Positions 4,548-5,020 of a stretch of DNA of 5,020 nt are shown in pieces. The stretch is taken from NCBI RefSeq assembly GCF_003334385.1, contig NZ_QOWN01000083.1; one strand, 5' to 3'. Origin of the DNA: Escherichia coli (GTDB lineage Bacteria; Pseudomonadota; Gammaproteobacteria; Enterobacterales; Enterobacteriaceae). Under the pieces are notes generated by a model that was not told the origin of the DNA, ran no database searches, and was given only the letters and a program-made list of their open reading frames with translations. How positions within the stretch are numbered: position 1 is the first letter of the stretch; the number at the start of each line of letters is the position of its first letter. The translations under genes and the position numbers were made by a program.

Positions 4548-4730
4548 TTACTGAAGCAACACAGCTGCCGCGGTAAAAAGAGCCACCACCCCACCCAGCC
4601 ACACAAACAACATGAAACACATTGCGCCTGTGGTGTAACGCTTTCTCCCGTATCTCCGGTCTCTGTCTTTGTTCATCATCTGCACCTTCTGAATCATCAG
4701 AAGATGCCGCGCATCCGGCAGGACCGCCAT
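4548..4730 (-). CDS. Hypothetical 60-aa micro-ORF with a basic N-terminal region and one predicted transmembrane helix; start overlaps the upstream stop (TGATG)
   Basis: The ATG at 4728..4730 shares its A with the TGA stop (4730..4732) of the upstream ORF, a typical translational-coupling arrangement. The product contains KDRDRRYGRKRY followed by a hydrophobic stretch AMCFMLFVWLGGVVALFTAAAVLL. Several in-frame internal ATGs make the true start uncertain, and the ORF could be spurious. Confidence 0.2.
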   Translation of the reverse strand: MAVLPDARHLLMIQKVQMMNKDRDRRYGRKRYTTGAMCFMLFVWLGGVVALFTAAAVLLQ

Positions 4731-5020
4731 CAGGCACCAACAAGCCGTCTGACACTCACACCATACAGCCCGTTTTTCGCCATTCCCGTATACAGAAAGG
4801 TATTCACCGTCTTTGTGTTAATACCCATCTCACTGGCAAGGCGGCAGGGTCTCGACTGGCGGTAGACATAACCGAACATCACCACCATCTCTGACATCGT
4901 CAGCGGGCGGGCAGCACTGTTATACGTCCAGACGCCGTTGTGTATGGCATCACTTATCTGCTCACCATCACGGAGCAACTCCGCATCCAGTTGCAGAAAA
5001 TGACGCCCCTGGAACATACA
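4730..5020 (-). CDS. 3' portion of a gene for a putative LuxR/GerE-type HTH transcriptional regulator (5' end lies beyond the window); TGA stop at 4730..4732
   Basis: The ORF is open at the window edge (codon 5018..5020 is in frame). The C-terminal ~55 aa, PLTMSEMVVMFGYVYRQSRPCRLASEMGINTKTVNTFLYTGMAKNGLYGVSVRRL, fits the LuxR/GerE HTH pattern (LT-x-SE ... I-x-x-KTV ... K-x-GL-x-GV-S-x-R), with the HTH at the very C-terminus as in that family. Same strand as and upstream of the autotransporter. A weak resemblance to IS1 InsA was also noted. This is pattern recall only, with no search. Confidence 0.4.
   Translation of the reverse strand, partial: CMFQGRHFLQLDAELLRDGEQISDAIHNGVWTYNSAARPLTMSEMVVMFGYVYRQSRPCRLASEMGINTKTVNTFLYTGMAKNGLYGVSVRRLVGA

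Follow-up and report, generated by a model that had tools for sequence, protein, structure and literature searches.

The orf-156/orf-60 gene pair upstream of the autotransporter gene eaa belongs primarily to the Eib adhesin cassette of Escherichia coli prophages

Do the two small genes directly upstream of a serine protease autotransporter of the Enterobacteriaceae (SPATE) gene on the Escherichia coli contig NZ_QOWN01000083.1 serve that protease, or do they belong to another system? The stretch analyzed here, referred to as the window, comprises 5,020 nt, and all the features relevant to the question lie on its minus strand, in the order orf-156, orf-60 and the SPATE gene eaa. An earlier note on this DNA had taken the arrangement as a three-gene unit in which a dedicated LuxR-type regulator and a small, translationally coupled membrane peptide are co-expressed with the protease. 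The comparisons described below revealed that the orf-156/orf-60 pair belongs primarily to the cassette of the Eib adhesins and not to the protease, and that eaa is an optional downstream passenger of this cassette, attached through two types of junction.

The SPATE gene (431..4456, 1341 codons, start at 4456; S6 family peptidase in RefSeq) encodes a protein of the EaaA/EaaC type, which was 98.7% identical to EaaC over 1341 residues and 99.0% identical to the copy in the best megablast match of the window (L001), and which was matched by the TIGR01414 autotransporter beta-barrel model with an E-value of 4.8e-73. Upstream, the window holds the C-terminal 96 codons of orf-156 (4733..5020; stop TGA at 4732-4730), whose frame is cut by the window edge; extension in this direction, as the earlier note had proposed, recovered a full regulator gene of 156 codons with its start 183 nt past the window end (full copy L001:11821-12291). 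The neighborhood of L001 is the end of a lambdoid prophage, where the genes run from tape measure through J, lom, tail fibre, DUF4376 and YadA-like to the 156-aa hypothetical protein and the S6 peptidase, followed by a convergent dinI-like gene and then by the host genes yecD and aspS. When phage records were searched by tblastn, the 156-aa protein turned out to correspond to ORF-156C (100%), ORF-156D and ORF-156A of the ECOR-9 prophages P-EibC, P-EibD and P-EibA, the identity to these copies being 96.8-100%. In the GenBank records AF151091 (P-EibA), AF151674 (P-EibC) and AF151675 (P-EibD), orf-60A/C/D are annotated with the same one-base overlap as in the window, and the order deposited for P-EibA and P-EibC is eib, a stem-loop, orf-156, orf-60, and then eaaA or eaaC. 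The locus is, in short, the already catalogued eib/orf-156/orf-60/eaa prophage arrangement, whose ORFs and order have been on record since 2000, and the impression that it is non-standard for this SPATE was not borne out. These records are reportedly tied to a study by Sandt and Hill in 2000.

No structural difference from the P-EibA/C/D locus was found, as ORF-156, the one-base overlap, the EaaC-like SPATE, and the upstream eib with its stem-loop are all shared, whereas the window derives from another strain or prophage and its 3' flank has the arrangement of P-EibA, not of P-EibC. Both small ORFs are without an assigned function in the deposited records. It has also been described that eaaA and eaaC sit on prophages linked to eib genes and that eaaC was experimentally transduced (PMC3153244). 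Among 5426 complete E. coli genomes, the 721-nt junction was found by megablast at 98-100% identity in 21, always on the chromosome, and RefSeq labels the two genes at these matches "hypothetical protein" and "S6 family peptidase".

The affiliation of the pair became apparent from the wider synteny. Fourteen of the sampled loci have an intact orf-156. In 13 of them the gene upstream of orf-156 encoded a YadA-like/Eib-like trimeric autotransporter, and in the fourteenth (L010) insertion sequence (IS) elements occupied this position. Between the eib-like gene and orf-156 lies a terminator-like hairpin with a T-run, which was conserved in an alignment of nine loci, with both arms changed in the most diverged one, and orf-156 starts approximately 35 nt after it. 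The two small genes always occurred together, at most 54 nt apart, in every intact locus examined. Every eaa locus opened had the pair upstream, but the pair without eaa was found in many loci and phage genomes, and some match to the orf-156/orf-60 region was present in 440 of the 5426 complete genomes (many of these being remnants), compared with roughly 50 for eaa (identity bands of at least 90%). The cassette itself was observed on lambdoid prophages at three attachment regions and on short-tailed Sepvirinae-like phages, in the latter between tail-fibre genes. The proposal of a regulator dedicated to the protease consequently received no support, the pair following an Eib-like gene in nearly all the sampled loci, often with no eaa behind it.

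The connection of eaa to the cassette was examined next to these data. Both junction types begin at the orf-60 stop and have the last 42 nt before the eaa ATG in common; strain JNEC-KY204 is one that shares the junction of the window. In the window, the 91-nt spacer between orf-60 and eaa (4457..4547) is composed of a junction-specific GC-rich part of 49 nt extending from the orf-60 stop to the eaa leader (4499..4547, from the alignment and the promoter scan), and of the common 42-nt leader (4457..4498), which is part of the eaa unit; at the loci having eaa only, the megablast matches likewise begin 40-42 nt 5' of the eaa ATG. In the E-type junction, a 145-nt AT-rich segment replaces the GC-rich 49 nt of the window in the alignment, the whole spacer being 190 nt, and this spacer contains two promoter-like sites, the second of which (TTATCA-17-TATGAT) ends just 5' of the common leader. 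The loci devoid of eaa showed instead an A-rich run and a GGGGAG-loop-CTCCCC hairpin directly after the orf-60 stop.

A consensus scan for promoters and terminators, in which a promoter site was defined by at least 9 of 12 consensus matches, was run on L001, whose sequence here is identical to that of the window. From the orf-156 start to the eaa start it detected no sigma-70-like or terminator-like site except for one weak hairpin inside orf-60, in agreement with the earlier observation that the autotransporter start lies 91 nt beyond the micro-ORF with no clear sigma-70 promoter in between. A search for structured RNA in 4300-5020 returned one sub-threshold chance match (snoZ17, E-value 0.71). 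Approximately 300 nt after eaa, a GGGAGAG-loop-CTCCCC hairpin preceded by an A-rich run (106..126) is probably a terminator shared with the convergent dinI-like gene. Homology between this hairpin (126-106) and the one following orf-60 was considered and rejected, no significant blastn alignment being obtained, so the two share a likeness of design only.

The regions flanking these junctions displayed further peculiarities. A 60-bp element whose ends are palindromic (around GGAAGGAGATC...GATCTCCTT) is located at 157-216 on the minus strand of the window, approximately 217 nt after the eaa stop, and had the same placement in the window, P-EibA and L011; in L001 (16573-16632) and P-EibC it was inverted (98%, reverse strand) and started 2 nt past the stop codon of eaa, and around it the two eaa types have different 3' flanks. 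In L002 (8474-8653), and also in L004 and L007, which are loci of the short-tailed phage type that lack eaa, the orf-60 hairpin is followed by 180 unannotated nt containing a minus-strand mini-ORF (MMEFAKIAIGITATECCYDILDKT), which ends at this hairpin, a canonical terminator when read on the minus strand, and is either a small gene or a chance ORF. In strain 2015C-3121 (L017:4046-8037), eaa is split into an S6 peptidase part and a beta-barrel part and is probably inactivated.

As to the nature of ORF-156, a structural model built with AlphaFold2 from 27 homologues (mean pLDDT 84.6, pTM 0.79) showed a four-stranded alpha/beta domain of approximately 90 residues followed by helices at 102-112, 118-125 and 129-142, the fourth helix of the helix-turn-helix (HTH) bundle being short and modelled with low confidence. 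Among solved structures, the 38 best Foldseek matches were all of the NarL/FixJ type (RcsB, LiaR, EvgA, FixJ, VraR, DosR and VpsT), and the nearest non-trivial neighbors in AFDB were enterobacterial proteins of 31-46% identity with TM-scores of 0.78-0.94, several of them labelled as LuxR family; the E. coli proteins among them, at 31-42% identity, scored 0.78-0.91. The family profile of ORF-156 retrieved LuxR-type chains only from the solved structures (E-values of 0.085-0.38); when the TosE-like relatives described below were added, GerE came first (E-value 0.0076), followed by eight LuxR-type or VraR chains. The alignments to the LuxR-family chains (three of them at E-values of 0.06-0.09) and to GerE were in register (LT-x-x-E ... 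KTV ...) and covered residues of approximately 100-143, the most conserved part of the family. The predicted LuxR/GerE-type HTH (LTMSEMVVMFGYVYRQSRPCRLASEMGINTKTVNTFLYTGMAKN), placed by the model helices, the profiles and Foldseek, corresponds to 4772..4903 of the window. A Pfam search of 16 members of the family, including the TosE-like ones, returned GerE for one (best E-value 1.8e-4) and Sigma70_r4_2 for one (6.8e-6). The single-sequence search of solved structures with ORF-156 gave chance matches only (e.g., protein G and beta-2-microglobulin).

The C-terminus of ORF-156 is, at the level of modelled fold and remote homology, a LuxR/GerE-type HTH, for which DNA binding is predicted; the earlier reading of such a domain in the upstream ORF was upheld by the model, the NarL/FixJ matches, the GerE profile match and the homology to TosE. 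The N-terminal domain, as modelled, is a truncated pseudo-receiver that falls short of the usual features of receivers. T7-R8-N9 stands in place of the acidic pair after strand 1, while the Asp at the end of strand 3 (D52) is invariant in the family, and no kinase gene was annotated in any cassette locus examined. ORF-156 consequently resembles the NarL/FixJ regulators RcsB, EvgA, LiaR and FixJ in being matched best by them over both domains and in the C-terminal LuxR-type HTH, but differs from them in its short receiver-like domain, the missing acidic pair and the missing adjacent kinase gene. The family is tiny, comprising 44 clusters in a collection of 5.8 billion proteins, nearly all from E. 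coli, and 35 representative clusters among 1.84 billion proteins. In PHROGs, ORF-156 matched the unannotated family phrog_6585 over its full length (E-value 2.1e-99) and gave an additional weak match to a "transcriptional regulator" family. A relationship to IS1 InsA or another IS remnant, also raised for the upstream ORF, was rejected, no IS or transposase family being present among the NCBIfam or PHROGs matches.

Beyond the cassette, a search of the representative proteins found three full-length distant relatives of ORF-156, designated P0082, P0081 and P0078. P0082 is 160 aa long and was related to ORF-156 both by HMM (E-value 1.9e-32, profile positions 1-152) and by BLASTP (32% identity, E-value 2e-30, 151 residues aligned). 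Its gene lies directly 3' of a large repeat protein gene and 5' of a gene for a GerE-domain protein; in strain Nissle 1917, it comes directly after a series made up of a PapB-family gene, TolC, ABC and HlyD genes and the gene of a beta-strand repeat protein. Because of this position after tosA in the tosRCBDA gene order, P0082 was identified as TosE. The gene of P0081 (37% identical to ORF-156) follows that of an RTX-type protein, and the product encoded upstream of P0078 (47% identical) ends in a YadA/Eib-type C-terminus, with orf-60 absent there. The linkage to adhesin genes is consequently kept at 32-47% identity, RTX-type proteins being found upstream of the TosE-like relatives.

TosE is a full-length homologue of similar size (approximately 156-160 aa) whose gene is placed, like orf-156, directly 3' of a large surface adhesin gene (tosA) on the same strand, and an AFDB protein of E. 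coli CFT073 with 31% identity and, like TosE, 160 aa reached a TM-score of 0.91 to ORF-156. The settings differ in that tosE is chromosomal and island-borne, follows the gene of a type I secreted RTX adhesin and precedes that of the LuxR protein TosF with no micro-ORF, whereas orf-156 lies on prophages behind the gene of a type Vc autotransporter. TosE and TosF have been described as proteins of the LuxR family that are associated with suppressed motility (PMC5956150). AutA and AutR of avian pathogenic E. coli, whose genes neighbor the autotransporter adhesin gene upaB, provide a further precedent; these LuxR/GerE-type regulators are orphans with no partner kinase and were reported to bind the upaB promoter and to act globally (PMC4844996). 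ORF-156 resembles them as an orphan LuxR/GerE-type regulator next to an autotransporter gene, a likeness of setting and description only, but their genes are not in one operon with upaB and no micro-protein partner was described (PMC4844996). The relationship to TosE and the predicted pseudo-receiver/LuxR fold of ORF-156 are new here, although some database fragments were already labelled "LuxR family".

Other relatives and copies of the pair were encountered in these searches. In enteropathogenic E. coli E2348/69 (L012:5016-5474) and in L013 (5004-5462), approximately 69% identical relatives of orf-156 stand beside the type III effector genes nleA, nleG and espJ; these relatives in prophages of enteropathogenic and enterohaemorrhagic E. 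coli are accompanied by neither eib nor orf-60, and are annotated as fragments in RefSeq. Shiga toxin phages (Stx1/Stx2, e.g., VT2-Sakai) contain shorter, two-piece remnants of orf-156, and phrog_2014 matches residues 21-78. Strain JNEC-KY173 (NZ_AP045169, 1.758-1.792 Mb; L002 and L015) has two copies of the cassette approximately 20 kb apart within one prophage region, the first being a complete eib - orf-156 - orf-60 with no eaa, and the second consisting of an IS-truncated YadA-like gene, an E-type orf-156 (157 aa), orf-60 and eaa. In a blood isolate (NZ_OZ547086, L014:4630-5050), degenerate remnants of orf-156 and orf-60 lie in an unannotated stretch flanked by IS fragments, downstream of another autotransporter gene and of a gene with an SdiA-regulated domain.

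The second gene of the pair, orf-60, has in GenBank an extent of 60 codons plus stop (4548..4730), its ATG sharing the A of the orf-156 stop, and the TGATG that the earlier note placed at 4728..4732 was confirmed, one base being common to both genes. Its product also has the two features ascribed to it, namely a basic segment (7 K/R against 2 D/E in residues 18-34) and a hydrophobic helix (residues 41-59, the most hydrophobic 19-residue window, with a mean Kyte-Doolittle value of 2.43). The phrog_9340 profile matched ORF-60 with an E-value of 3.8e-25, and its positions 1-43 of 43 were aligned to residues 18-60 only; this conserved core, 43 codons from MMNKD plus stop, occupies 4548..4679. Among 32 homologues, Y32, A36-F42, W44-G47 and A56 were invariant, and the part before Met-18 was variable or absent, so that the core is characterized by a basic N-terminus, one predicted transmembrane helix and the invariant Y-x-x-GAMCFMLF-x-WLG. 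At the DNA level, the core was found 3' of orf-156 in every locus examined that has an intact orf-156, unannotated copies included. All the nucleotide differences among five lineages within the invariant block were synonymous, and conservative hydrophobic replacements were seen elsewhere. These patterns indicate that orf-60 is a real gene under purifying selection with a conserved product of 41-43 aa. From the charge distribution, the product would be a single-pass inner-membrane protein with a cytoplasmic N-terminus.

Conservation of the micro-ORF, which the earlier note had proposed to test, was consequently only partly confirmed, since the core is kept in the intact loci and represented by phrog_9340 whereas the first 17 codons are not conserved, and the TGATG overlap did not recur in the diverged loci. 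The frame is open back to TGATG in the A/C/D-type loci, including the window. In the E-type loci (P-EibE, L011 and L015-17), an in-frame stop precedes the conserved start region and the conserved Met lies 54 nt after the orf-156 stop; in the L007/L009 type, the distance from the orf-156 stop to the core Met is 44 nt, and an in-frame stop is present just 5' of this Met. The core Met overlaps the orf-156 stop (ATGA) in the L008 type, and the L025/L026 type has a long form of orf-60 with a GTG start 4 nt after that stop. The TGATG overlap and the 17-codon N-terminal extension are thus lineage-specific, the overlap being limited to the A/C/D type. A Shine-Dalgarno-like AAGGTG (4683..4688) is located 4 nt 5' of the Met-18 ATG, and reading of the window sequence found no comparable motif before the TGATG start; the Met-18 ATG is the probable true start of the micro-protein.

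Annotation of the gene is uneven. The core is unannotated in L011 (5614-5739), L015-L017 (approximately 3726-3850), L008 (6536-6664), L009 (6606-6731), L006 (3047-3172) and the P-EibE record, and the annotated starts vary between records, giving 41, 49, 57 or 60 aa. The micro-protein gene has been overlooked by current annotation in many loci.

Taken together, we consider it rather probable that the window is the distal end of a prophage cargo cassette with the structure eib - orf-156 - orf-60 - eaa. Oriented like the late genes, the cassette would follow the tail-fibre genes in lambdoid and short-tailed prophages of E. coli, and the pair, as a constant 3' companion of the eib-type gene separated from it only by the terminator-like hairpin, would form one expression unit, always on one message, encoding a small, TosE-like transcription factor of the cytoplasm and a membrane micro-protein of approximately 43 aa. 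Because no separate promoter was found, the pair is presumed to be fed by read-through of the hairpin and to be probably expressed at a low level, with transcription starting in the lysogen at the eib promoter or, after induction, at the Q-antiterminated late promoter. eaa would have been inserted right after the orf-60 stop. Since the window type of junction is without the AT-rich promoter-like spacer, we lean slightly towards co-transcription of eaa, which would here most likely be the last gene of the same transcription unit. Regarding function, ORF-156 most likely acts in trans on adhesin or surface-protein expression or on motility, by analogy to TosE/TosF and to AutA/AutR, and is unlikely to be a dedicated eaa regulator, while a role of ORF-60 as a membrane partner or modulator of ORF-156 is the one that we would prefer on similar grounds.

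Several observations weigh against this picture. With regard to the regulator, the PF00196 search suggested in the earlier note gave no match for the full ORF-156, nor did any other Pfam model, Response_reg included, even at E-values of up to 10, and no NCBIfam or PADLOC model matched it either. The Foldseek E-values against solved structures started from only 1.4e-3 with low TM-scores, which we ascribe to a different orientation of the two domains. With regard to expression, neither the scan nor the nine-locus alignment revealed a promoter for orf-156 in the approximately 35 nt that separate its ATG from the eib hairpin, the consensus scan may have overlooked a promoter in the 91-nt spacer that is weak or requires an activator, and the promoter-like matches in the E-type spacer were no more frequent than in shuffled sequence. 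A search for an operator-like repeat common to the eib upstream region and the eaa leader returned only short matches of chance size. Finally, the function proposed for ORF-60 is entirely a deduction, and the expression of Eaa has never been verified (PMC3153244).

The explanation closest to the earlier note, a dedicated operon of orf-156, orf-60 and eaa with a protease-specific regulator and a 60-aa peptide made through TGATG stop-start coupling, would account for the common strand, the tight spacing, the lack of promoter- or terminator-like signals between the genes, and the presence of orf-156 and orf-60 ahead of eaa in every sampled eaa locus. It appears quite unlikely, considering that the pair stands without eaa in many loci and phage genomes, that an Eib-like gene precedes it in 13 of the 14 sampled intact loci, that the TGATG and the N-terminal 17 codons are absent from the diverged loci, and that the E-type eaa is set apart by a 190-nt AT-rich spacer with promoter-like sites. 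Such sites just 5' of the 42-nt leader, which is present in both junction types, are in turn what would be expected if the 91-nt spacer held a promoter, weak or dependent on an activator, from which eaa were transcribed by itself, and if the adjacency of the pair were only a scar left by recombination when the cassette was assembled. Monocistronic transcription is usual for autotransporter genes (PMC4844996), and a TTGACT hexamer can be read in the leader. This hexamer, however, is not followed at 16-18 nt by an acceptable -10 element, the scan detected nothing in 4457-4547 that reached 9 of 12 consensus matches, and the 49-nt junction-specific part is GC-rich; furthermore, no terminator-like site separates orf-60 from eaa, whereas the eaa-less loci have a hairpin directly after orf-60. 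We therefore regard an own promoter of eaa as rather unlikely in the window type of junction.

It is also conceivable that the pair has nothing to do with autotransporter regulation and is instead an accessory system of the phage, for instance one for superinfection exclusion or anti-phage defence, or a small membrane toxin with its controller. A small membrane protein paired with an HTH protein, situated among the tail and cargo genes of prophages in a manner typical of accessory genes and belonging to a family nearly confined to E. coli prophages, would suit this role. The closest characterized relative, TosE, is nevertheless encoded by an adhesin operon of the chromosome rather than by a phage, the adhesin linkage persists at 32-47% identity in non-phage contexts where orf-60 is missing, and PADLOC had no match for either ORF-156 or ORF-60, which together make this explanation very unlikely.

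What is new in this arrangement is that the pair goes with the adhesin gene rather than with the SPATE, that the extent of the micro-protein is corrected, and that eaa joins the cassette through two types of junction; apart from the new candidates, the locus is cargo of the ordinary kind for prophages and had been recorded before. The expression of Eib adhesins is poor. Eaa is one of those SPATEs for which neither expression nor a role has ever been established (PMC3153244). The uncharacterized ORFs between eib and eaa are candidates for the missing layer of control, which would consist of a LuxR-type regulator resembling TosE and of a membrane micro-protein that is strongly conserved, both travelling with the adhesin gene across several phage backbones. 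Although it is unlikely on present evidence, ORF-156 and ORF-60 might even constitute a two-part switch, in which the micro-protein senses or gates the kinase-less regulator and the latter coordinates the expression of Eib and Eaa with host motility; if this were true, the prophage would reprogramme the surface and lifestyle of its lysogen.

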